Source: a virus (lineage: Duplodnaviria > Heunggongvirae > Uroviricota > Caudoviricetes). From it: a stretch of 44,162 nt of DNA. The DNA lies in the IMG/VR virus record IMGVR_UViG_2541047704_000003, one strand, 5' to 3'. The position numbers and the translations under genes were made by a program. The notes beneath the pieces are model-generated. The model saw nothing but the letters and a program-made list of their open reading frames with translations, ran no database searches and was not told the DNA's origin. Each line of letters opens with the position of its first letter. Position 1 is the first letter of the stretch. This document shows positions 1 through 14,671 of this stretch, piece after piece.

Positions 1-1143
1 CTATGCTGTTTTGATATCTACGATAATCCAGTCTTTACCACGATCATCATTGTATCGGTCGGTCATTTTTCTGGATTTATGACCTAACAACTTTTGCGTA
101 TCCAGACCCTGTTCCCGATATAACCGTTCTGACAGAGATCGCTGCTCATGAAATGTGGGCGCAGTTCCTGGCTCCCATTTTATGCCACATTTTTCCCTGG
201 CCTTTTTAAAAGCCGTTGTAAGAGTATTTGCAGACACCTGGTCTCCTCTGTTTGCTTGAGAGGTAGTGTGACGGTAATGGACCAGATATTTACTAACAAC
301 AGCATCCCTGCACTGAGATATAACTTCACGAAGGGTAATATTCAGAGCATCGCATTTCAGGTTAAGCGGAATAGCAAGTTTTGAACCGGTTTTTTCCTGA
401 GTAATGTGCAACATGTCGTCCCAGATATCAGAGAATTTCAAATTGCAGATATCGCCTAAACGTTGTCCAGTGACAAGAGCAAGTAGCATCCCGCATTTTA
501 AATAGGGCTGCCGTCTGCTTACGCTGTCAAATATTGCCTGCCATTCGGGCAGTGATAATCTTTGGCGGTTTACTCGATTTCGCGGTTGTTTTGTTGCCTG
601 CGCTGGGTTAAATCCTGGCGGAACATGTCCTGCGTGTTGTGCTTCTTTGAAGACGTCGATCAACACCATTCTCACGACTTGCGCCATCCTGTTATGACCT
701 TCAGCCTTTACAGCATCAATTATTTCGGCAATATCAAGTGCGGTAATATCCTTGAGGTGTTGCATTCCACAATGCTCACGGAAAAGACGAATGGGTTTGC
801 CTTTTTGCCGATAGGAGTTGGGTCTTAGTTCATTATGTTGCAGCCTGTCCTCCTGGATAGAAATATATTTATCAAGCCATTCTGTCACCGTAATGTCTGA
901 GCGCCTGCCTTTCATTCTTTCTAGACGCTCATTGACGCTTAATATTTGTCGGGTACGTTGTTCAGCAATAATGGTATTTGCTTCAGTAGCAACTTGTTTT
1001 GCTTCATTCTCATCAGTTCCTAAGCTATGAAAACGACCGGATAGTGGATGTTTGTATTGCCAATATACCTTTCCGGTTCGCTTATCTAATTTGCAATATA
1101 AATTGGGTATAGAGATTTTGTGAGATCGGGGTCTAGCAGCCAT
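1..1143 (-). CDS. int: tyrosine integrase (lambdoid Int family)
   Basis: 380-aa ORF from track; C-terminal catalytic-region motif LGHKSRKMTDRY; adjacent to xis at prophage edge; stop codon at positions 1-3 so the gene is complete in the window. Confidence 0.9.
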   Translation of the reverse strand: MAARPRSHKISIPNLYCKLDKRTGKVYWQYKHPLSGRFHSLGTDENEAKQVATEANTIIAEQRTRQILSVNERLERMKGRRSDITVTEWLDKYISIQEDRLQHNELRPNSYRQKGKPIRLFREHCGMQHLKDITALDIAEIIDAVKAEGHNRMAQVVRMVLIDVFKEAQHAGHVPPGFNPAQATKQPRNRVNRQRLSLPEWQAIFDSVSRRQPYLKCGMLLALVTGQRLGDICNLKFSDIWDDMLHITQEKTGSKLAIPLNLKCDALNITLREVISQCRDAVVSKYLVHYRHTTSQANRGDQVSANTLTTAFKKAREKCGIKWEPGTAPTFHEQRSLSERLYREQGLDTQKLLGHKSRKMTDRYNDDRGKDWIIVDIKTA

Positions 1144-3607: not shown

Positions 3608-3825
3608 CTGTCAGCAATGTTTTTACTCCTCGTTATTGCCGGAATACCTAAGCCATTGTCTGAATGCAGCCATGCCACCGGATTCTCTTCCAGCGATGCC
3701 AGAGCAATTTCATAAGCCCGGCGCTCAACATTGTCTCGCACATCCAAACTGCTGATACGCTCTTTGATTTCTTTAATCAGTTCTTTGTCGGTAAAAGTGC
3801 TCATATCAATCTCCATTGGTATCAA
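3550..3825 (-). CDS. hypothetical protein
   Basis: 91-aa ORF in operon orientation; start possibly at internal MSTFTDKELIK. Confidence 0.35.
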   Translation of the reverse strand: MIPMEIDMSTFTDKELIKEIKERISSLDVRDNVERRAYEIALASLEENPVAWLHSDNGLGIPAITRSKNIADSWLSKGWYVQPLYMPSQCQ

Positions 3826-4570
3826 TGTTTACAGCCTGACAAGACTCTTTGAGCACCCAGTCAATAGCGTCTTTCCATGCCTCTGTTTCGACTGGTGGAT
3901 TTTCACGCTTAACCTGTTCATAGAAGCGCACTGCTTTAACCAGTCCTTCCGGTACTACTGGTGATGGCTGTTTAGCTTCTAAATCAGCAATTCTGTCAAC
4001 CACGGCATCGACAGCATCTGAAAAGCCGAACCAGTTGCTCCACTCCGGCTCATCCCCGGTTGCTGCAAAGTACATATCTGCTAAAGCAGATTCAGCATGG
4101 TCACGCTCGTTAATGAGTTGCTCTTCGCTTTTCTCCAGTTCAGCAATACGCTTACCCCCATCCGAGATAACACCTTCGTAATACTCACGCTGCTCGTTGA
4201 GTTTTGATTTTGTCTCCTCAAGCTCAACTCTCAGCTTCCCAACAGTAAGAGCAATATCCTCGTTCTCCTGGTCGCGGCGTTTTATGTATTGCTGGTTTCT
4301 TTCCCGTTCATCCAGCAGTGCCAGCACAGTAGCCGGATTGGCTGCGGCGATGAATTCAGCATTGGCCTGCTGTTCCATTTGGAAATCTTCATCGAAACCG
4401 CTTTCTGGATGCGCTCCTTCAATTCTGCAAATGGGAATATATCCAGCAACTTCACGATGAATTAGCGCATAATCACCATCAAATCGGCTCTCTCCATATT
4501 CGAGCGACCACTCACCACACGTTGCTTTTTCTGCCGCTTCACGCAGTGCCTGATAGTTAATTTCGCTCAC
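3806..4570 (-). CDS. Ea22-like coiled-coil protein
   Basis: 254-aa ORF with central charged coiled-coil-like region (LEETKSKLNEQREYYE...AELEKSEEQLINERD), in the ea22 position upstream of orf73-like gene. Confidence 0.45.
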   Translation of the reverse strand: MSEINYQALREAAEKATCGEWSLEYGESRFDGDYALIHREVAGYIPICRIEGAHPESGFDEDFQMEQQANAEFIAAANPATVLALLDERERNQQYIKRRDQENEDIALTVGKLRVELEETKSKLNEQREYYEGVISDGGKRIAELEKSEEQLINERDHAESALADMYFAATGDEPEWSNWFGFSDAVDAVVDRIADLEAKQPSPVVPEGLVKAVRFYEQVKRENPPVETEAWKDAIDWVLKESCQAVNIDTNGD

Positions 4571-7505: not shown

Positions 7506-7638
7506 TTTTTGGGACTCCTGGCTGATTAAGTATGTCGATAAGGCGTTTCCATCCGTCACGTAATTTACGGGTGATTCGTTCAAGTAAAGATTCGGAAGGG
7601 CAGCCAGCAACAGGCCACCCTGCAATGGCATATTGCAT
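7474..7638 (-). CDS. cIII: CIII (FtsH inhibitor, protects CII)
   Basis: 54-codon ORF read by hand on minus strand: [54 protein letters not shown], matching lambda CIII; AAGGAG Shine-Dalgarno 6 nt upstream; below the 60-aa track cutoff. Confidence 0.7.
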   Translation of the reverse strand: MQYAIAGWPVAGCPSESLLERITRKLRDGWKRLIDILNQPGVPKNGSNNYGYPD

Positions 7639-7710
7639 GGTGTGCTCCTTATTTATACATAACGAAAAACGCCTCGAGTGAAGCGTAATTGGTATGCGGT
7701 AACGCCGCGC

Positions 7711-8675: not shown

Positions 8676-9257
8676 ATGAACAACTCATGGTGGCAGGAAC
8701 TAATGCATTTTTTCCTGCAAGGAATGACACTTAAACAGTTGATTCATATGCTAATCATCCTGATCATATTGATTATTGTTATGCCGGTAAGCGTAAAAGA
8801 ATGGATAAACCTGCATAGTCCAGAAATCCTTCCTCATTACTGGATGTATTACATCCTGTTGTTTTGCGTTAGCTATGTGCTTAACGGCGTTGTTAATTCC
8901 GCTTATCACGCTGTGACTGAAAGAATTGAGGTATTCGCTGCTCAGAAGCGCAAATCTAAAGAAGAAAAATATGTGCAAGATTTGTTTGATTCGTTAACTC
9001 TTGGAGAAAGAGCGTATTTGGCATTCGCTGTAGCCGCTAATAACCAGCTACAAACGGAAAAGGGCGCTCATGAATCAATTTCATTGCTCAAAAAAGGACT
9101 CCTCGTTCGAAGGCCTCCTGCTGTTGGATATCCTGATACCGACCGTTTCGTTATCCCTGAAAGCTATAGACATGAGTGCTACATTAGGTTTGCCGGGAAG
9201 GCAGACAGCCTTATGGATGAACTTATCGCTCAGGATAAGCATGGCAAAAACAAGTAA
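8676..9257 (+). CDS. sieB: SieB superinfection exclusion protein
   Basis: 193-aa ORF MNNSWWQELMHFFLQGMTLKQLIHMLIILI... with N-terminal transmembrane segments, closely matching lambda SieB; located between ral and N as in lambda. Confidence 0.85.
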   Translation: MNNSWWQELMHFFLQGMTLKQLIHMLIILIILIIVMPVSVKEWINLHSPEILPHYWMYYILLFCVSYVLNGVVNSAYHAVTERIEVFAAQKRKSKEEKYVQDLFDSLTLGERAYLAFAVAANNQLQTEKGAHESISLLKKGLLVRRPPAVGYPDTDRFVIPESYRHECYIRFAGKADSLMDELIAQDKHGKNK

Positions 9258-9273
9258 TTAGCAAATGAATTTA

Positions 9274-9546
9274 TCATCTCGCCGTCAGTTGTTTTGATTT
9301 CCGGTAGCCTGCCGCGTAAAGAGCTACGTTCGGAAGACAAGTTGAACCTTCATATTTTCTGGTCAACGTTGTCAGAGTTATCACTTCTGCTCTCATTGCT
9401 GGTTTGAGCTTGCATTGCAAGACCACTCGTGAAGGGGTTGGCCTGTGTAGCTTGTCGGAGCTGATCGCCTCCTGACTTTGCAGATTTGCGCGACGAGCTC
9501 TACGGCGAGAAGCTGCGGTGCCTTTAAATTCTGTTTTTCTGGACAT
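9274..9546 (-). CDS. N: N-type transcription antiterminator
   Basis: arginine-rich motif GTAASRRRARRANLQ near N-terminus (N-protein ARM-like); strong GGGAGG Shine-Dalgarno before ATG at 9546 (track ORF extends to 9618); nutL boxA/boxB just upstream; position between sieB and pL. Confidence 0.6.
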   Translation of the reverse strand: MSRKTEFKGTAASRRRARRANLQSQEAISSDKLHRPTPSRVVLQCKLKPAMRAEVITLTTLTRKYEGSTCLPNVALYAAGYRKSKQLTAR

Positions 9547-9644
9547 GGATTCCTCCCGAATAAACTTTGGCGATGCAATCTCGAAGCTCCTCCTGAGACG
9601 GTTGCTTCGGCATTGCATCCCACAGCTTATGTGGTTGGGTGATC

Positions 9645-9689
9645 TGGCTTTTCAGCCACGTAGTCGAGAGTCGACGTTGTTTAAAGAGC
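9645..9689 (-). promoter_or_regulatory. nutL (boxA GCTCTTTAAACAA plus boxB hairpin TGGCT-GAAA-AGCCA)
   Basis: read on minus strand upstream of N; boxA resembles CGCTCTT(T)A consensus; boxB is a 5-bp stem with purine-rich GAAA(A) loop like lambda boxB. Confidence 0.5.
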
Positions 9690-9734
9690 CTGCCAGTCTG
9701 TTCCATTTGGCTTCCAGCGTCCTGCTGACGGTTA

Positions 9735-9800
9735 AATAGTACGATATGTACTTTACAAGATCAATACAATTTGTTGTAAGTTGGCGTGGTTTTTTATAAC
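9735..9800 (-). promoter_or_regulatory. candidate pL/oL operator-promoter region
   Basis: contains 11-mer ATATGTACTTT (9744-9754) that recurs in inverse orientation at oR (12054-12064), plus TACAA/TTGTA half-site-like repeats; located between the rex-position cassette and nutL/N. Confidence 0.4.
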
Positions 9801-9952
9801 GCTTTGTATTTAATAGTGTTGTTTTTTAGCGTGGATGTATTGCCTCGGCGATGTAAGGAGAGATCAGAATTGCGTGGTTTAGTGGGTTGCATCTATTTAT
9901 TTTTCAATAAATATAATTGGTTATGTGTTTTTAGGTGGGCGAACGTGAGGCA

Positions 9953-9977
9953 AAGAAAACCCGGCGCTGAGGCCGGG
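9953..9977 (-). terminator. rho-independent terminator closing the cI operon
   Basis: minus-strand hairpin CCCGGC-CTCAGC-GCCGGG followed by TTTTCTTTG, beginning 5 nt after the stop of ORF 9983-10735. Confidence 0.5.
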
Positions 9978-9982
9978 TTGTA

Positions 9983-10735
9983 TTATGCTGCAAGTCTCTT
10001 AACCCAAGTCTCTCTTTTGGAGAATGGTAGAACTTGGCTTGATTCATGGAAGAGTAAGGAGAGTTGTTGCATTTGATCACCAATTGCTTCGCTGTCTATA
10101 ACAACAAATCTGTTGTTATACTCCTCACTTGAAGCTTTAAGATCAATTAGTTTCCCAAGCAATGAGTAAGCACTATTCCAGCTTCCTCCGTGTTTCACGC
10201 TTGATGTAAAAACGTATTTAGGTATGTCGGTTTTTATTGTTACAGGGACGGTAATTTGATGTCCACTCAAGCCATATACGTTTTCACGAAGAGAAAGTGC
10301 GTCTCTAAGCTCTGTGTGATATAGATAATCAATAACCATACTTTCAAACTTTTCAGCTTGAACTGGCTGATACCAGTCTAACGACAAAGTTGATGCGAGT
10401 ATACCAGCTCTAATTATGTTCGATGTAATCGCACCGACATCCTTTTCTGTTGCCCAAGCAATGATTTCTCCTCGAGCATTGAGTTCTGCGCCTTCTTTAA
10501 GCAGTAATTGTCGTATCTCATCAAGTCGTTTTTTGGTAAGCGAGATCCCTCTTGCCTCCATATTCATTAAGGCATCGCATCTGTCACTAACTAAATACCT
10601 ACCATTGACTTCACGGATAAAGGCACCGACATGCTCTCCATCATCACAGTAAGTGAATGGACTGATAATTCTCAAGGTCTTGCCTATTGGATGGCATTCG
10701 AAACCTAGTTGTGAGATCACTGTTGAGCACATCAT
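9983..10735 (-). CDS. uncharacterised protein, distal gene of two-gene cassette in the rexAB position
   Basis: 250-aa ORF; start overlaps stop of upstream ORF (ATGA); AT-rich relative to flanking phage DNA; no family, transmembrane segment or catalytic motif recognised. Confidence 0.6.
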   Translation of the reverse strand: MMCSTVISQLGFECHPIGKTLRIISPFTYCDDGEHVGAFIREVNGRYLVSDRCDALMNMEARGISLTKKRLDEIRQLLLKEGAELNARGEIIAWATEKDVGAITSNIIRAGILASTLSLDWYQPVQAEKFESMVIDYLYHTELRDALSLRENVYGLSGHQITVPVTIKTDIPKYVFTSSVKHGGSWNSAYSLLGKLIDLKASSEEYNNRFVVIDSEAIGDQMQQLSLLFHESSQVLPFSKRETWVKRLAA

Positions 10736-11289
10736 ATTCCAAACCCCATTTGCCCCGACTCATCTTCAAGCGGTAAAGGTATTCTCCCAGAGTAAGTTAT
10801 GTTCAGATGTTTACAGAAGTAATTCCAATACCCTACCAGGTCATCTGGGTTTATGTCATCTTCGATTGGAAACGCTATTCTATCACTATAGTATCCAGCT
10901 TCTTCATAGTATACATGGTAGTGAGCACCGTAAATGATATCTTGGTACTTCGGATGATCGACCTTGTAACTATTCGTGTGTTTGTCAAAGTGATAGGTAT
11001 CTACCGCGAAAACCCTCTTGTTATGATAGAAAGCAATAATATTTATTTTAGGGTAAGAAATCGGGTCATCAGGTTCTGAATCCTGATCTGGTTTCCATTT
11101 CAGTTCAAACTTTAGCCCTTGTATAGGTATACAATCCTCATCCAAGGGGATGATATGGGCTTGTAGCCACATATCAGAGCGACTTGGTTTCTGTTTCCAT
11201 TTAACGCCAGAAAAGTTAACTATTTTTTTACAATAAAGTACTTTATCAACTTCTACTTGGCTTGGCTGATAATCATCTATTTTTGCCAA
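10732..11289 (-). CDS. uncharacterised acidic protein, proximal gene of two-gene cassette in the rexAB position
   Basis: 185-aa ORF 39 nt downstream of cI stop on the same strand; Asp/Glu/Tyr-rich; no family recognised. Confidence 0.6.
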   Translation of the reverse strand: MAKIDDYQPSQVEVDKVLYCKKIVNFSGVKWKQKPSRSDMWLQAHIIPLDEDCIPIQGLKFELKWKPDQDSEPDDPISYPKINIIAFYHNKRVFAVDTYHFDKHTNSYKVDHPKYQDIIYGAHYHVYYEEAGYYSDRIAFPIEDDINPDDLVGYWNYFCKHLNITYSGRIPLPLEDESGQMGFGI

Positions 11290-11328
11290 TGTTTACCGCC
11301 CTGTAAATTGTAGATAAAAGTGGTTTCA

Positions 11329-11988
11329 TCACCCAAACGTCTCTTCAGGCCATTGGCTGGCGATAACTTTCCCCACAACGGAACAACTCTCATTGCATGG
11401 GATCATTGGGTATTGTGGGTTTAGTGGCTGTAGAAACACCTGACCGCTATCCCTGATCAGTTTCTTGAAGGTAAATTCATCACCACTAAGTCTGGCTATG
11501 CAGAAATCGCCGGGCTCAACAGCTTGCTCAGGGTCAACCAGAATTAACATCCCGTCAGGAAAGCTGGGTTTGGAACCTGTTGGTGCGGTCATTGAGTTAC
11601 CTTCAACCTCAAGCCAGAATGCAGAGTCACTGGCTTTTTTGGTTGTGCTTACCAATCTCTCCGCATCGCCTTTGGTAAAGGTTCTGAGTTCTGGAGAGAA
11701 CATCCCAGCCTGAACATGAGAAAAAACAGGGTACTCATATTGTTTTTTAACTGGGGCCGATGAGTATTCGCCAACAGGTGAAAATGTCCCGTCGTGGTTG
11801 AATGATATGTTATCAATACCAAGGTATTTAAACACCACACCAATATCACTAAGAGATGGATGACGAGATCCGCGCAACCAGTGTCCAATCCCACCCTGCG
11901 TCATACCTAGCTCTTCGGCTAACTTCTCTTGAGTTATGCCGAGCTCTTTCATTCTGGATCTAGCCAGTTCATACCATTTCATTTTCAT
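11329..11988 (-). CDS. cI: CI-type prophage repressor (HTH N-terminal domain plus LexA/S24-like autocleavage domain)
   Basis: C-terminal ~130 aa ([21 protein letters not shown]...[15 protein letters not shown]) matches lambda CI; N-terminal HTH ([20 protein letters not shown]) differs from lambda; start uncertain (ATG 11988 favoured, track ORF starts with TTG at 12030). Confidence 0.8.
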
Positions 11989-12030
11989 GTCCTTATTATT
12001 ACGCTCTGTACTGGAACCATCCATGCACAA

Positions 12031-12090
12031 TGTGTATTTTTACTTGTATTCGCAAAGTACATATTGTATTTTTTTTATTCGTGTTTACTA
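12031..12090. promoter_or_regulatory. candidate oR/pR-pRM divergent operator-promoter region
   Basis: intergenic region between divergent cI and cro; contains AAAGTACATAT (12054-12064), the reverse complement of the oL 11-mer, and repeated TTGTATT elements. Confidence 0.45.
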
Positions 12091-12100
12091 TGGAGGGCAT

Positions 12101-12316
12101 ATGAGCAACCTACGAAAATATCGAGAGTCACTGAATATCTCTCAAACAACACTTGCTAAGGCAGTTGGATGCACACAGGGAGCTATCGGACATTGGGAAT
12201 CTGGTCGTCGCTTCCCAGACCTTAAAACATGCCGTGCTCTTGTTGCGTGCCTAAACAAGTTAGGCGCAAAAGTCAGTCTTGATGACGTGTTCCCGCCGGA
12301 ACACAAAGCCGCTTAA
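12101..12316 (+). CDS. cro: Cro-like repressor (HTH XRE family)
   Basis: 71-aa ORF MSNLRKYRESLNISQTTLAKAVGCTQGAIGHWESGRRFPDL... with HTH; GGAGGG Shine-Dalgarno upstream; divergent from cI. Confidence 0.7.
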   Translation: MSNLRKYRESLNISQTTLAKAVGCTQGAIGHWESGRRFPDLKTCRALVACLNKLGAKVSLDDVFPPEHKAA

Positions 12317-12326
12317 TAAGCGGATC

Positions 12327-12372
12327 CGCTCTTTGTAACAACGGACATTCGTCCTACGTCGCTGAAAAGCGA
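12327..12372 (+). promoter_or_regulatory. nutR (boxA CGCTCTTTGTAACAA plus boxB hairpin TCGCT-GAAA-AGCGA)
   Basis: directly downstream of cro; same boxA/boxB architecture and GAAA(A) loop as nutL. Confidence 0.5.
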
Positions 12373-12457
12373 GTTCCAAGATATCTGACCAACTAAGGCC
12401 ATATGCGTTTCCACGCATACCTTTCAACTAACTATTCACTATTGGAAATCTTAAGAA

Positions 12458-12754
12458 ATGGAAAGAACAAGTTACAGCAAACTATCACAGCGTGACGTTG
12501 ATCGCGCAGAAACAGATTTACTTATCAATCTGTCAGCTATTACCCAGCGCGGTCTGGCAAAGATGATTGGCTGTCATGAATCGAAGATAAGCAGAACGGA
12601 CTGGAGATTTATTGCTTCGGTCTTGTGTGCTTTCGGAATGGCATCAGACATCAGTCCGATTAGCAGGGCTTTTAAGTATGCGCTTGATGGACTCACCAAT
12701 AAAAAACGCCCGGCGGCAACCGAGCGTTCTGAACAAATCCAGATGGAATTCTGA
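12458..12754 (+). CDS. cII: CII transcriptional activator
   Basis: 98-aa ORF; C-terminus LTNKKRPAATERSEQIQMEF matches lambda CII; N-terminal DNA-binding part differs from lambda. Confidence 0.8.
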   Translation: MERTSYSKLSQRDVDRAETDLLINLSAITQRGLAKMIGCHESKISRTDWRFIASVLCAFGMASDISPISRAFKYALDGLTNKKRPAATERSEQIQMEF

Positions 12755-12786
12755 GGTCATTACTGGATCAATCCACAGGAGTCATT

Positions 12787-13686
12787 ATGACAAATACAGC
12801 AAAAATACTCAACTTCTGCAGAGGTAACTTTGCCAAACAGGAGCGTAATGTGGCAGATCTCGATGATGGTTACGCCAGACTATCAAATATGCTGCTTGAG
12901 GCTTATTCAGGCGCAGATCTGACCAAGCGACAGTTTAAAGTGCTGCTTGCCATTCTGCGTAAAACCTATGGATGGAATAAACCAATGGACAGAATCACCG
13001 ATTCTCAACTTAGCGAGATTACAAAGTTACCCGTCAAACGGTGCAATGAAGCCAAGTTAGAACTCGTCAGAATGAATATTATCAAGCAGCAAGGCGGCAT
13101 GTTTGGACCAAATAAAAACATCTCAGAATGGTGTATCCCTCAAAACGAGGGAAAATCCCCTAAAACGAGGGATAAAACATCCCTCAAATTGGGGGATTGC
13201 TATCCCTCAAAACAGGGGGACACAAAAGACACTATTACAAAAGAAAAAAGAAAAGATTATTCGTCAGAGAATTCTGGCGAATCCTCTGACCAGCCAGAAA
13301 ACGACCTTTCTGTGGTGAAACCGGATGCTGCAATTCAGAGCGGCAGCAAGTGGGGGACAGCAGAAGACCTGACCGCCGCAGAATGGATGTTTGACATGGT
13401 GAAGACCATCGCGCCATCAGCCAGAAAACCGAATTTTGCAGGGTGGGCTAACGATATCCGCCTGATGCGTGAACGTGACGGACGTAACCATCGCGACATG
13501 TGTGTACTGTTCCGCTGGGCATGCCAGGACAACTTCTGGTCCGGTAACGTGCTGAGCCCGGCCAAACTCCGCGACAAGTGGACCCAGCTCGAAATCAACC
13601 GTAACAAGCAACAGGCAGGTGTGACAGCCTGCAAACCAAAACTCGACCTGACAAACACTGACTGGATTTACGGGGTGGATTTATGA
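12787..13686 (+). CDS. O: replication initiator O
   Basis: 299-aa ORF closely matching lambda O; internal iterons present. Confidence 0.9.
   Translation: MTNTAKILNFCRGNFAKQERNVADLDDGYARLSNMLLEAYSGADLTKRQFKVLLAILRKTYGWNKPMDRITDSQLSEITKLPVKRCNEAKLELVRMNIIKQQGGMFGPNKNISEWCIPQNEGKSPKTRDKTSLKLGDCYPSKQGDTKDTITKEKRKDYSSENSGESSDQPENDLSVVKPDAAIQSGSKWGTAEDLTAAEWMFDMVKTIAPSARKPNFAGWANDIRLMRERDGRNHRDMCVLFRWACQDNFWSGNVLSPAKLRDKWTQLEINRNKQQAGVTACKPKLDLTNTDWIYGVDL
13134..13262 (+). repeat. ori-lambda-type origin: four iterons plus AT-rich region inside O
   Basis: four ~18-bp inverted-repeat iterons of the form ATCCCTCAAAACGAGGGA (variants) followed by A/T-rich stretch ACAAAAGAAAAAAGAAAAGATTATT. Confidence 0.7.
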
Positions 13687-14384
13687 AAAACATCGCCGCA
13701 CAGATGGTTAATTTTGACCGTGAGCAGATGCGTCGGATCGCCAACAACATGCCGGAACAGTACGACGAAAAGCCGCAGGTACAGCAGGTAGCGCAGATCA
13801 TCAACGGTGTGTTCAGCCAGTTACTGGCAACTTTCCCGGCGAGTCTGGCTAACCGTGACCAGAACGAACTGAACGAAATCCGCCGCCAGTGGGTTCTGGC
13901 TTTCCGGGAAAACGGGATCACCACAATGGAACAGGTTAACGCAGGAATGCGCGTAGCCCGTCGGCAGAATCGACCATTTCTGCCATCACCCGGGCAGTTT
14001 GTTGCATGGTGCCGGGAAGAAGCATCCGTTATCGCCGGACTGCCAAACGTCAGCGAGCTGGTTGATATGGTTTACGAGTATTGCCGGAAGCGAGGCCTGT
14101 ATCCGGATGCAGAGTCTTATCCGTGGAAATCGAACGCGCACTACTGGCTGGTTACCAACCTGTACCAGAACATGCGGGCCAATGCGCTGACTGACGCGGA
14201 ATTACGACGCAAGGCTGCCGATGAACTGACCTGTATGACAGCGCGAATTAACCGTGGTGAGACGATACCTGAACCAGTAAAACAACTTCCTGTCATGGGC
14301 GGCAGACCTCTAAATCGTGTTCAGGCGCTGGCGAAGATCGCAGAAATTAAAGCTAAGTTAGGACTGAAAGGAGCAAGTGTATGA
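13683..14384 (+). CDS. P: replication protein P (DnaB helicase loader)
   Basis: 233-aa ORF matching lambda P; 4-nt overlap with O. Confidence 0.9.
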   Translation: MKNIAAQMVNFDREQMRRIANNMPEQYDEKPQVQQVAQIINGVFSQLLATFPASLANRDQNELNEIRRQWVLAFRENGITTMEQVNAGMRVARRQNRPFLPSPGQFVAWCREEASVIAGLPNVSELVDMVYEYCRKRGLYPDAESYPWKSNAHYWLVTNLYQNMRANALTDAELRRKAADELTCMTARINRGETIPEPVKQLPVMGGRPLNRVQALAKIAEIKAKLGLKGASV

Positions 14385-14671
14385 CGGGCAAAGAGGCAAT
14401 TATTCATTACCTGGGGACGCATAATAGCTTCTGTGCGCCGGACGTTGCCGCGCTAACAGGCGCAACAGTAACCAGCATAAATCAGGCCGCGGCTAAAATG
14501 GCACGGGCAGGTCTTCTGGTTATCGAAGGTAAGGTCTGGCGAACGGTGTATTACCGGTTTGCTACCAAGGAAGAACGGGAAGGAAAGATGAGCACGAACC
14601 TGATTTTTAAGGAGTGTCGCCAGAGTGCCACGATGAAACGGATATTGGCGGTATATGGAGTTAAAAGATGA
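14381..14671 (+). CDS. ren: Ren
   Basis: 96-aa ORF MTGKEAIIHYLGTHNSFCAPDVAALTG... matching lambda Ren; overlaps P stop. Confidence 0.75.
   Translation: MTGKEAIIHYLGTHNSFCAPDVAALTGATVTSINQAAAKMARAGLLVIEGKVWRTVYYRFATKEEREGKMSTNLIFKECRQSATMKRILAVYGVKR

Follow-up and report, generated by a model that had tools for sequence, protein, structure and literature searches.

What immunity system does a lambda-like prophage carry when parts of its CI and CII proteins are lambda's own while the parts meant to recognize DNA are not? The question is raised by positions 11329-12754 of a 44,162-nucleotide stretch of viral DNA, analysed at full length and called here the window. This DNA is a lambda-like prophage that matches E. 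coli CFT073 at 100% identity, and Nissle 1917 prophage 3 and phage PhiR57_1 at about 99.9%. The comparisons drew on phage and E. coli sequence collections, which sufficed for the question. We give a probability of about 0.9 to the view that the region is a complete, apparently functional lambda-like prophage immunity switch of the known VT2-Sakai/Stx2-II/Nil2 specificity. GenBank annotation and earlier papers already cover the immunity type, its operators and its lambda-like repressor tail. The region is a textbook case of modular exchange in lambdoid phages and adds little that is new; of practical value are a clean coordinate map of the switch of the CFT073/Nissle-type prophage and two side observations, on the Nissle gene 'pr' and on a candidate defence pair.

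A mosaic relative to lambda

The genes and segments on which the comparison bears are the following.
9274-9546, minus strand: N antiterminator, 90 aa (Pfam N_peptide, 1.5e-32)
9858-9979, minus strand: lambda-like block, 90%, ending in the cI operon terminator (stem 9979-9958)
11329-11988, minus strand: cI repressor gene, 219 aa, open reading frame starting MKMKWYE
11982, minus strand: alternative ATG start of cI
11740-11988, minus strand: CI head (HTH_3), codons 1-83
11329-11739, minus strand: CI hinge and S24 tail, codons 84-219
11328-11739, minus strand: lambda-type cI segment, 93.2% nucleotide identity, 134/136 aa
12101-12316, plus strand: cro, 71 aa, all-alpha HTH_3 (open reading frame, profile match)
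12458-12754, plus strand: cII, 98 aa (Pfam Phage_CII, 7e-34, full length)

The original prediction took the C-termini of CI and CII to be those of lambda, and the CI N-terminal HTH, Cro and the N-terminal part of CII to be foreign to it. Both halves of this statement agree with what we find. Blastn aligns only three parts with lambda: 11328-11739; 9858-9979, which lies downstream of the cI operon; and, at 97%, a block that opens at 12692 with cII codon 79 and takes in the rest of that gene, oop, O, P and ren. The stretch 11740-12691 has no nucleotide similarity to lambda. At the protein level, CI residues 84-219 are identical to lambda at 134 of 136 positions and the CII tail LTNKKRPAATERSEQIQMEF (residues 79-98) at 20 of 20; the CI head, Cro and CII residues 1-78, the latter Sakai/HK022-like, align poorly or not at all with the lambda proteins. 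These identities establish two sharp junctions, one in the hinge at cI codon 84 and the other at cII codon 79. The same cI break, at query nt 250, recurs in about 39 phage records whose immunity is of the lambda type, and in the lambda and Sakai types the near-identical tail is always joined at the same hinge codon. Within the lambda-type cI segment, 25 of the 28 nucleotide differences sit in codons with the amino acid unchanged.

The repressor pairs an HTH_3 domain (residues 11-58, E=1.9e-10) with a Peptidase_S24 domain (residues 87-209, E=2e-28), the N- to C-terminal order of the self-cleaving LexA/lambda-CI S24 family, and it matches the structure of lambda repressor (PDB 3bdn, 1.9e-95). 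The catalytic landmarks lie in lambda's context throughout: A94-G95 in VQAGMF, S132 in GNSMT and K175 in FKKL. Judged by these residues, the autocleavage apparatus is intact. As for the start of the gene, database cI records that begin at 12024 or 12030 would read through oR3 and oR2.

The head is not new. It is 100% identical in 56 phage records, including Stx2 phage II, a Stx1-converting phage, Nil2 and the PA phages. Identity with VT2-Sakai is 98.8%, and the full CI differs from that of Stx2 II at one residue (218/219 identical). Outside the Sakai group, all tblastn matches are less than 80% identical and most less than 60%. Cro and the CI head are paralogues (35% identity, E=9e-13) with a common recognition helix TQGxIGHW (TQGGIGHW in CI). 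Cro is identical to that of Stx2 II (71/71, 100%); its match to structures of the P22 C2 N-terminal domain is weak (3jxb, E=0.009). N is unlike lambda N and 89/90 identical to that of Stx2 II. Taken together, N, cI, cro and cII are about 95-96% identical to those of Stx2 II, the Stx1 phage and the PA phages. The lambda CI DNA-binding domain and lambda Cro, which mark imm-lambda, are not those of the window; its repressor DNA-binding domain and Cro, and the sequences and arrangement of its operators, are those of the VT2-Sakai/Stx2-II type. It had been proposed that a head of known immunity type would make the region non-chimeric. The head is indeed of known type (VT2-Sakai/Stx2 II/Nil2), but the region is still chimeric with respect to lambda: since the whole Sakai type has a lambda-like tail, the chimera exists relative to lambda, yet is not new.

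In the slot occupied by rexAB in lambda, within 9983-11289, the window has a candidate defence gene pair (PDC-M24-like, DUF1828). A literature search for PDC-M24 or DUF1828 with phage defence found nothing.

Six operators with a common core

The comparison of oL and oR that had been suggested defines six 17-bp operators of the form A-N-TAC-N5-GTA-N-T, three on each side, listed here without strand and with their leave-one-out rank.
9737-9753: oL1, TAGTACGATATGTACTT, rank 1
9762-9778: oL2, CAATACAATTTGTTGTA, rank 1
9795-9811: oL3, TATAACGCTTTGTATTT, rank 1
11997-12013: oR3, TATTACGCTCTGTACTG, with a homologue in AP005154, rank 6 of 44146
12023-12039: oR2, ATGCACAATGTGTATTT, rank 8
12055-12071: oR1, AAGTACATATTGTATTT, rank 1

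A weight matrix trained on all six sites was rejected as circular, and leave-one-out ranking and conservation across phages were therefore used instead. The ranks are 1, 1, 1, 1, 6 and 8 among 44146 positions, oR2 and oR3 being the weakest sites. In each of six phages the top six matrix matches are these same six operators, whose core positions never vary (0/48, against 55/150 of the other positions, p=1.5e-8). Allowing at most one mismatch, ANTACN5GTANT occurs 21 times in the window as against 8.7 +/- 2.8 times in shuffled sequence, a count reached in 0 of 100 shuffles. GenBank AP005154 carries six putative operators at homologous places, with oR1-3 identical to those of the window, and the published VT2-SA OR1-3 oligonucleotides have the very sequences of oR1-3.

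The original prediction had built its case on the 11-mer ATATGTACTTT, placed, correctly, at 9744-9754 and as its reverse complement at 12054-12064. The 11-mer does belong to oL1 and oR1, the strongest operators, but does not coincide with a half-site: it takes in one flanking base and the first 10 bases of the 17-bp operator, and so covers one half and the centre. The pair grows to a 21-nt inverted repeat (86%), the best within 9690-12110. The nearby TTGTATT/AATACAA elements, also read as half-sites, are indeed further operator half-sites.

Two other operator-like places were considered and set aside as probable chance. One is a third copy of the 11-mer, at 4067-4077 (minus strand), which had been overlooked; it lies inside an ea22-like gene and is a half-site only, the second half being missing. 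The other is an operator-like pair in sieB (8835-8863), which scores below the true operators.

Promoters, antitermination and CII

The control elements around these operators are as follows, promoter positions being putative.
9736-9764, minus strand: pL, -35 TTGATC, 17-nt spacer, -10 TACTAT
11995-12023, minus strand: pRM, -35 TGGATG (12023-12018), -10 AATAAT (12000-11995)
12044-12072, plus strand: pR, -35 TTGTAT (12044-12049), 17-nt spacer, -10 TATTTT (12067-12072)
9645-9690, minus strand: nutL, boxA GGCTCTTTA (9690-9682), boxB TGGCTGAAAAGCCA (9658-9645)
12327-12372, plus strand: nutR, boxA CGCTCTTTG (12327-12335), boxB hairpin TCGCTGAAAAGCGA (12359-12372)
12467-12480, minus strand: putative CII box of pRE, TTGCTGTAACTTGT, cII nt 10-23
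12700-12812, minus strand: oop antisense RNA unit, with promoter and terminator

A consensus promoter scan called none of pR, pL and pRM because their matches to the consensus are weak, and we infer their positions from register and conservation. The putative pR has its spacer and -10 overlapped by oR1, the register of pL to oL1 is the same as that of pR to oR1, and the pR hexamers are retained in six phages as TTGNAT and TATTTT/TATTAT. At the place homologous to pRM, AP005154 bears the annotation of a putative maintenance promoter. The pRM transcript would start at about 11988, the A of the cI ATG, which would make the mRNA leaderless as in lambda; the centre of oR2 lies at about -43 from that start. 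NutL is paired with nutR and shows a compensatory change in its stem. Rfam has no family matching nut, oop or the operators, its sole match being the cIII thermoregulator, outside the region.

By sequence, CII belongs with the phage CII transcriptional activators: it has the Phage_CII domain, and a direct-repeat box of the TTGC-N6-TTGC kind lies at the -35 of the putative pRE, inside the 5' end of cII. The box has the register of lambda's TTGCGTTTGTTTGC, with one mismatch, in the second repeat. TTGC-N6-TTGY is not enriched genome-wide (5 found, 6.3 expected), so that what argues for the box is only its match in position to lambda pRE. Antisense to the 3' end of cII, which it overlaps, the oop unit (promoter TTGAGT-17-CATAAT at 12812-12784, terminator 12730-12703, fold z = -3.5) lies wholly inside the lambda-like block; a conserved linker sequence has been noted for oop (PMC3349717).

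A side observation concerns Nissle 1917: the published Nissle 'phage repressor pr' is the window's cII gene. Published work reports that 'pr' shields Nissle 1917 and K-12 from lambda and Stx phages. Being a cII homologue and not a repressor, 'pr' calls for another interpretation of the protection result.

How the switch would work

In the scheme that these data suggest, dimers of CI would bind the six operators through a 434/P22-style HTH head with helix TQGGIGHW, oL1-3 covering pL, and oR1-3 covering both pR and pRM. Having the recognition helix of the CI head, its paralogue, Cro would read the same operators. Dimerization would come from the hinge and tail, which are lambda's own module. The same tail might provide pairwise and long-range cooperativity, with oL and oR 2.3 kb apart as in lambda, and RecA-stimulated self-cleavage at Ala94-Gly95 by Ser132/Lys175. 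The centres of oR2 and oR3 are 26 bp apart. Those of oR1 and oR2 are separated by 32 bp, where lambda has 24 bp, so that pairwise cooperativity of the lambda kind cannot be taken for granted at oR1-oR2. CI at oR2, centred at about -43, would be well placed to activate the weak pRM, whose transcript would begin at the cI ATG. CII would act at the TTGC-N6-TTGT box in the register of lambda pRE, and its 20 lambda-identical residues would simply be the part of cII that overlaps oop and belongs with the lambda-type oop-O-P replication block.

Immunity specificity and other readings

The claim that the operators differ from those of lambda withstood a comparison of reciprocal weight matrices: cognate sites score 13.9-21.8 bits and sites of the other phage -10.5 to +4.9, lambda's own matrix giving the window operators -10.5 to -0.4 as against 14.7-21.8 for lambda's. 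The TATCACCGC half-sites that mark imm-lambda operators do not appear in those of the window. Hetero-immunity relative to lambda is likely, a grade that we set because of a statement of Fattah et al. reported in a 2023 paper (PMC10742460). Fattah et al. (2000) described, according to that paper, a lambda-like tail with an unlike head; this work, Tyler et al. (2004) and Sato et al. (2003) are cited here at second hand (PMC10742460, PMC4587872) or through GenBank annotation. The searchable literature yielded no binding, transcription or immunity experiment with the cognate Sakai-type repressor.

The best placed of the alternatives, though an improbable one, is that Sakai-type CI and lambda CI cross-react, by residual operator recognition or by mixed dimers or oligomers, so that lysogens would be partly immune to lambda. 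The reported statement of Fattah et al. speaks for it, as do CI tails identical at 134 of 136 residues and 17-bp operators in both phages with half-sites sharing A2, A5 and C6. The EMSAs on Sakai-type operators that we found used lambda CI only and gave micromolar apparent Kd: all VT2-SA operators were bound, at 3.7-6.4 uM, as compared with 0.2-3 uM for lambda CI on its own sites (PMC10742460). These values are, however, near that of the weakest lambda site, and most of the binding may be non-specific; the reciprocal matrices place non-cognate operators 10-30 bits under cognate ones. Nissle 1917, host of the same prophage, resists lambda, but that effect came from a clone with cII, not cI.

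A wider conjecture, about as doubtful, is that the lambda-type tail common to the lambda and Sakai specificities allows mixed dimers or assemblies between hetero-immune phages, while the CI tail and the operon terminator serve as homology arms for defence cassettes. If so, mixed assemblies would create cross-talk (partial cross-immunity, negative dominance or co-induction), and the cassettes swapped downstream of cI would be rexAB, the PDC-M24-like pair, orf22 and the NYN gene.

Our reading of the region as a functional Sakai-type switch has also to be weighed against decay. Two changes are private to the window when set against Nissle and PhiR57_1, namely G168S in CI and one additional T immediately beyond the -10 of pR; both fall in the switch and they are the sole differences from PhiR57_1 in the first 16.2 kb. 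They might have locked the switch, leaving a prophage that is non-inducible or non-viable, and Bury et al. saw Nissle prophages uninduced, although Nissle is without both changes. We hold this to be quite unlikely. The open reading frames of the region are all intact, the extra T lies after the -10 and outside the operator core, and the residue corresponding to lambda G185, being Cys in the SPN9CC homologue, tolerates change (a literature search on lambda Gly185 found nothing). Elsewhere in the prophage there are 37 differences, clustered, so that an enrichment of private changes in the switch is not demonstrable. Viability is further favoured by ev207 and PhiR57_1, deposited as complete phage genomes with the same immunity region; over its 3.8 kb, identity is 99.9-100% with CFT073, Nissle 1917, ev207, ev017 and PhiR57_1.

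It is very improbable that the 11-mer is shared through promoter descent or by chance and not through repressor binding: it does lie in the -35/-10 spacer of the putative pL and pR in the same orientation to transcription, and its third copy has no second half-site, but only 0.02 copies are expected in the window, the dyad-symmetric motif recurs six times with an invariant TAC-N5-GTA core, and promoter-irrelevant flanks drift.

Comparison with known systems

With lambda the window has in common the order N-oL-(cassette)-cI-oR-cro-nutR-cII-oop-O, three plus three 17-bp operators with about 2.3 kb between oL and oR, a CI hinge and tail identical at 134/136 residues, cleavage site and Ser/Lys dyad included, the register of the pRE box, and a CII tail, oop, O, P and ren that are identical or 97% identical. 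It departs from lambda in a CI head of low amino-acid identity and no nucleotide similarity, in a Cro that is an all-alpha HTH_3 paralogue of CI, outside the lambda Cro fold family, in its half-site (AAGTACAA instead of TATCACCG), in the 32 bp instead of 24 bp between the centres of oR1 and oR2, in N and the nut boxB sequences, and in the replacement of rexAB.

The closest system is the Sakai type, with VT2-Sakai (Sp5), Stx2 phage II, the Stx1-converting phage (Morioka V526), Nil2 and the PST1 'PA' phages. The window agrees with these in gene order and spacing, and in CI head (98.8-100%), Cro (100%), N (89/90) and CI (218/219); no base differs in oR1-3 and oL1, and oL2 and oL3 each have one substitution outside the core. 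The differences lie around this unit: the window has lambda-type replication genes and CII residues 79-98, for which the Stx phages have HK022-like counterparts, it carries the DUF1828 pair instead of orf22/c63 between cI and the terminator, it has no stx genes, and the rest of its genome is lambda-like whereas the records of the Stx phages say Sepvirinae/Traversvirus.

More distant are the 434/P22-type systems, with CI/C2 and Cro as paralogous HTH_3 proteins. In the window too, repressor head and Cro are homologous to each other and, as in 434, have a recognition helix in common; repressor identity is too low for a common specificity, and the operators differ. The Salmonella P22-like SPN9CC/g341c/ST64T group shows the same pairing of CI domains (head 52%, tail 80% identical) and ATAC-N5-GTAT-like sites in its oR region, in another host genus and probably with another specificity. 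Its CI tail is equally far, at 80-81%, from lambda CI and from the CI of the window.

Architecture of the immunity region

The window spans a lambda-like prophage from int (1-1143, minus strand) at one end to the side tail-fibre region at the other, and lambda DNA aligns with about 56% of its 44 kb. DNA identity with lambda is 97.5% in the exo-bet-gam-kil-cIII-ea10-ral block, 97.3% in oop-O-P-ren-ninB and 95.4% in tail genes Z to J, but only about 66-68% in the head genes; N, the immunity core and the greater part of the nin/Q region are divergent or unalignable. The early-left block also holds a lambda cIII thermoregulator RNA (Rfam RF01804, 88.5 bits; 7593-7651, minus strand). The blastn comparison with lambda, limited to 9200-14600, gave the matches listed below and no others.

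Genes and lambda-like segments of the immunity region
11329-11988, minus strand: cI
12101-12316, plus strand: cro
12458-12754, plus strand: cII
9858-9979: lambda-like, 90%; counterpart just downstream of lambda rexB, ending in the operon terminator
11328-11739: lambda-like, 93.2%; cI codons 84-219
12692 onward: lambda-like, 97%

The mixed ancestry noticed in the original prediction is confirmed, and its reading as a chimeric immunity region is supported. CI residues 84-219 match lambda CI 101-236 at 134 of 136 positions and CII residues 79-98 match lambda at 20 of 20; the CI head (the DNA-reading part, codons 1-83), Cro and CII residues 1-78 align with lambda proteins poorly or not at all. The 3.8 kb around this region occur at 100% identity in E. 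coli CFT073 and at 99.9% in Nissle 1917, the E. coli type strain, many ExPEC genomes and the deposited phages ev207, ev017, PhiR57_1 and PhiR63_2; at least 80% of the stretch is present in 236 of 5426 complete genomes.

The slot between cI and its operon terminator, filled by rexAB in lambda, by orf22/c63 in Sakai and Stx2 phage II and by an NYN-domain gene in phage 2B8, here holds a minus-strand pair of genes (9983-10735 and 10732-11289, within 9981-11330). The first encodes a DUF1828 protein matching the PADLOC candidate PDC-M24B (4.7e-10); the second matches DUF6978 and PDC-M24A weakly (about 5e-4). Homology with lambda and with Stx2 phage II stops exactly at two points, the terminator (9979/9980) on one side and the cI stop (11328/11331) on the other. 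Literature searches for PDC-M24 and for a link between DUF1828 and phage defence returned nothing.

Repressor and Cro

CI comprises HTH_3 and Peptidase_S24 domains, keeps the lambda cleavage context (Ala94-Gly95, Ser132, Lys175) and has lambda repressor as its closest solved structure (3bdn, 1.9e-95). Its head and Cro are paralogues (35% identity, E=9e-13) with a common helix, TQG(G/A)IGHW, so that both should read the same sites. Aligned to lambda CI, the head retains lambda Gln44 as Gln31 and replaces Ser45 with Gly32; acidic Glu21 and Glu25 stand at the positions of Glu34 and Asp38, which mark the positive-control patch of lambda. In the light of established lambda structure-function knowledge, the kept Gln31 and the change to Gly32 would fit half-sites with common A2, A5 and C6 and an altered position 4.

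Over the first 16.2 kb, besides an intergenic indel of ~39 bp at about 16231, the window and PhiR57_1 show two differences only: CI Gly168 to Ser (position 11487), equivalent to lambda Gly185 and seven residues before the catalytic Lys, and an extra T (position 12069) in the T-run just after the predicted pR -10. Within 9200-13000, these two also set the window apart from Nissle 1917. Both sit in the switch, an enrichment that is not provable because differences elsewhere are clustered. The repressor of Salmonella phage SPN9CC has Cys at the position equivalent to 168.

Operators and promoters

Six putative 17-bp operators are annotated in Stx2 phage II (AP005154), and their homologues define computationally the oL and oR regions of the window, three sites per side:

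oL1, 9737-9753: TAGTACGATATGTACTT
oL2, 9762-9778: CAATACAATTTGTTGTA
oL3, 9795-9811: TATAACGCTTTGTATTT
oR3, 11997-12013: TATTACGCTCTGTACTG
oR2, 12023-12039: ATGCACAATGTGTATTT
oR1, 12055-12071: AAGTACATATTGTATTT

Their dyad consensus is A-N-TAC-N5-GTA-N-T. With leave-one-out weight matrices over 44,146 positions, oL1, oL2, oL3 and oR1 rank first, oR3 sixth and oR2 eighth; a loose operator pattern gives 21 matches against 8.7 +/- 2.8 in shuffles, a number reached in none of 100. Among six phages with the same repressor (5-6.5 kb each), the same six sites are the six top matches. In their alignment 0/48 core positions vary against 55/150 others (Fisher p = 1.5e-8), substitutions within operators being confined to the central five bases or to degenerate outer positions. 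Under reciprocal matrices, cognate sites score 13.9-21.8 bits and sites of the other phage -10.5 to +4.9: lambda and window operators are mutually unrecognisable, in line with the different operators proposed in the original prediction.

The 11-mer seen on both sides does lie at 9744-9754 and, as its reverse complement, at 12054-12064 (chance expectation ~0.02 copies per window); the pair grows to a 21-nt inverted repeat, the best between 9690 and 12110. Its interpretation as a half-site holds in so far as it falls within oL1 and oR1, but it is made of one flanking base and the first ten operator bases. The AATACAA/TTGTATT elements nearby are other operator half-sites, as had been suspected. 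A third, overlooked copy (4067-4077, minus strand), inside an ea22-like ORF (3806-4570), extends to a 13-mer, GCAAAGTACATAT, common to the oR1 flank, and to a 12-mer common to oL1; the second half-site is absent, which makes a functional operator there unlikely. The top non-operator matches are two operator-like 17-mers that overlap each other at 8835-8863 within sieB (8676-9257), CATTACTGGATGTATTA and TATTACATCCTGTTGTT; they reach 10.6 and 12.75 bits, where true sites score at least 14. They make a near-palindrome in an AT-rich gene and probably arose by chance.

The layout of the switch was inferred from sequence:

pR, 12044-12072: TTGTAT-17-TATTTT, spacer and -10 covered by oR1
pL, 9764-9736: TTGATC-17-TACTAT, in the same register to oL1 as pR to oR1
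pRM (weak), 12023-11995: TGGATG-17-AATAAT, abutting oR2
nutR, 12327-12372: boxA and GAAA-loop boxB
nutL, 9690-9645: boxA and GAAA-loop boxB

A pRM transcript would begin near 11988, on the first base of the ATG opening MKMKWYE, and such a start implies a leaderless, lambda-like cI message. Operator centres would then lie at ~-43 of pRM (oR2), ~-17 of pR (oR1) and ~-16 of pL (oL1), which we take to be close to those of lambda, judged by its mapped transcription starts. Longer cI starts are on record, ATG 12024 (PhiR57_1, RefSeq) and TTG 12030 (a mechanical ORF). The extensions cross oR3 into oR2, upstream of the predicted pRM start, and this location inside the operators argues that neither is used from pRM. 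In the Nil2, 683R2 and SPN9CC records cI begins at the MKW/MNW methionine. Between boxA and boxB, each nut site has an additional small hairpin; the boxB hairpins, TGGCTGAAAAGCCA in nutL (9645-9658, minus strand) and TCGCTGAAAAGCGA in nutR (12359-12372, plus strand), show a compensatory G:C to C:G exchange between their stems.

Might such a switch still be partly cross-immune with lambda? Cross-immunity has been described by Fattah et al., in the account given by PMC10742460, a paper which reports micromolar EMSA values for lambda CI on Sakai-type operators (those of the VT2-Sakai/Stx2 phage II/Nil2 type), and the near-identical CI tails could form mixed dimers. We nevertheless consider it improbable: the reciprocal matrices oppose it, and the lambda resistance of Nissle, often tied to it, was obtained with cII, not cI. 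As all its parts are intact, the switch is unlikely to be locked or decayed, and both the dyad symmetry and the conservation footprint contradict the notion that the 11-mer reflects no more than chance or promoter ancestry.

The cII-oop junction

The lambda-identical CII tail begins at nt 12692, 11 nt past the oop terminator (12730-12703) in the direction of oop transcription, and the oop promoter (12812-12784) lies deeper inside the lambda-like block. The lambda-type C-terminus is thus the part of cII overlapping oop, and it moves with the oop-O-P replication module. In Stx2 phage II, the tail of the same cII and the replication genes are both HK022-like. The predicted oop RNA folds well (z = -3.5). 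In lambda the CII tail is an FtsH degradation signal as well. A putative pRE box, TTGCTGTAACTTGT, occupies cII nt 10-23, lambda's exact register, with a -10 similarly placed after it.

Bury et al. 2018 (PMC5987069) found that the 'phage repressor pr' of Nissle 1917 (EcN_1294), cloned in K-12, cut the plating of lambda and of Stx phages about 200-fold. In the window, the primers used for cloning fall at 12412-12430 and 12761-12780 and those used for qPCR at 12655-12713, across cII; the cloned pr is thus the cII homologue with most of the oop sequence, minus its promoter, rather than cI. Phage 2B8, where automatic annotation names the homologous cII gene 'Phage repressor', and the Nissle locus are laid out alike.

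The junction within cI

Searched by megablast against 50,697 phage records, cI gave 62 full-length matches, Sakai type in every case. About 39 more records match query nt 250-660 alone, and in all of them the match breaks off at one and the same nucleotide, in hinge codon 84. They include lambda, HK97, HK544, HK106, mEp234 and SfI and, as far as identified, are presumably phages of lambda immunity type. At this level of DNA similarity, the lambda-type tail (hinge and S24 part) therefore appears to be joined to just two heads through a single-looking junction. Identity with lambda is 93% in the tail segment, below the 97% of neighbouring lambda-like modules, and 25 of its 28 differences fall in codons with unchanged amino acid, which indicates an older exchange under strong purifying selection. 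The two domains are paired likewise in SPN9CC, whose head is 52% identical to that of the window and whose tail is 80% identical to lambda CI and window CI alike; the association of the two families is therefore an old one. Either lambda or the Sakai type could be the recombinant.

Comparison with known immunity systems

The immunity type has already been described in print, so that the original prediction is a correct rediscovery. The CI head is 100% identical in Stx2 phage II, the Morioka V526 Stx1-converting phage, Nil2, Stx2a_WGPS phages and PA (PST1) phages, and 98.8% in VT2-Sakai; head matches of other types are all below 80%, most below 60%, the nearest among the matches listed at about 52-57%. 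Identity with Stx2 phage II is 71/71 for Cro, 89/90 for N and 218/219 for CI. The VT2-SA OR1-3 oligonucleotides of PMC10742460 are identical to oR1-3; Fattah et al., again as presented there, described the lambda-like repressor tail with its unlike head. Yin et al. (PMC4587872) tabulated predicted OL1-3 and OR1-3 of Sakai-type phages, and Llarena et al. (PMC8951638) put Sakai-type CI and lambda CI together in 'Clade I', with an overall identity of 61%. In the literature, we found no experiment that tried the cognate repressor against these operators, the binding data located using lambda CI only (PMC10742460).

Compared with lambda, oL1 and oR1 are 2318 rather than 2407 bp apart, and centre-to-centre spacings are 25 and 33 bp in oL and 32 and 26 bp in oR, against 24/20 and 24/23. 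A CI-type head and a Cro reading the same sites, as expected here, are found in 434 and P22, whereas in lambda Cro is unrelated to the CI head. The window carries the described Sakai immunity type on a lambda-like, not an Stx-phage, backbone.
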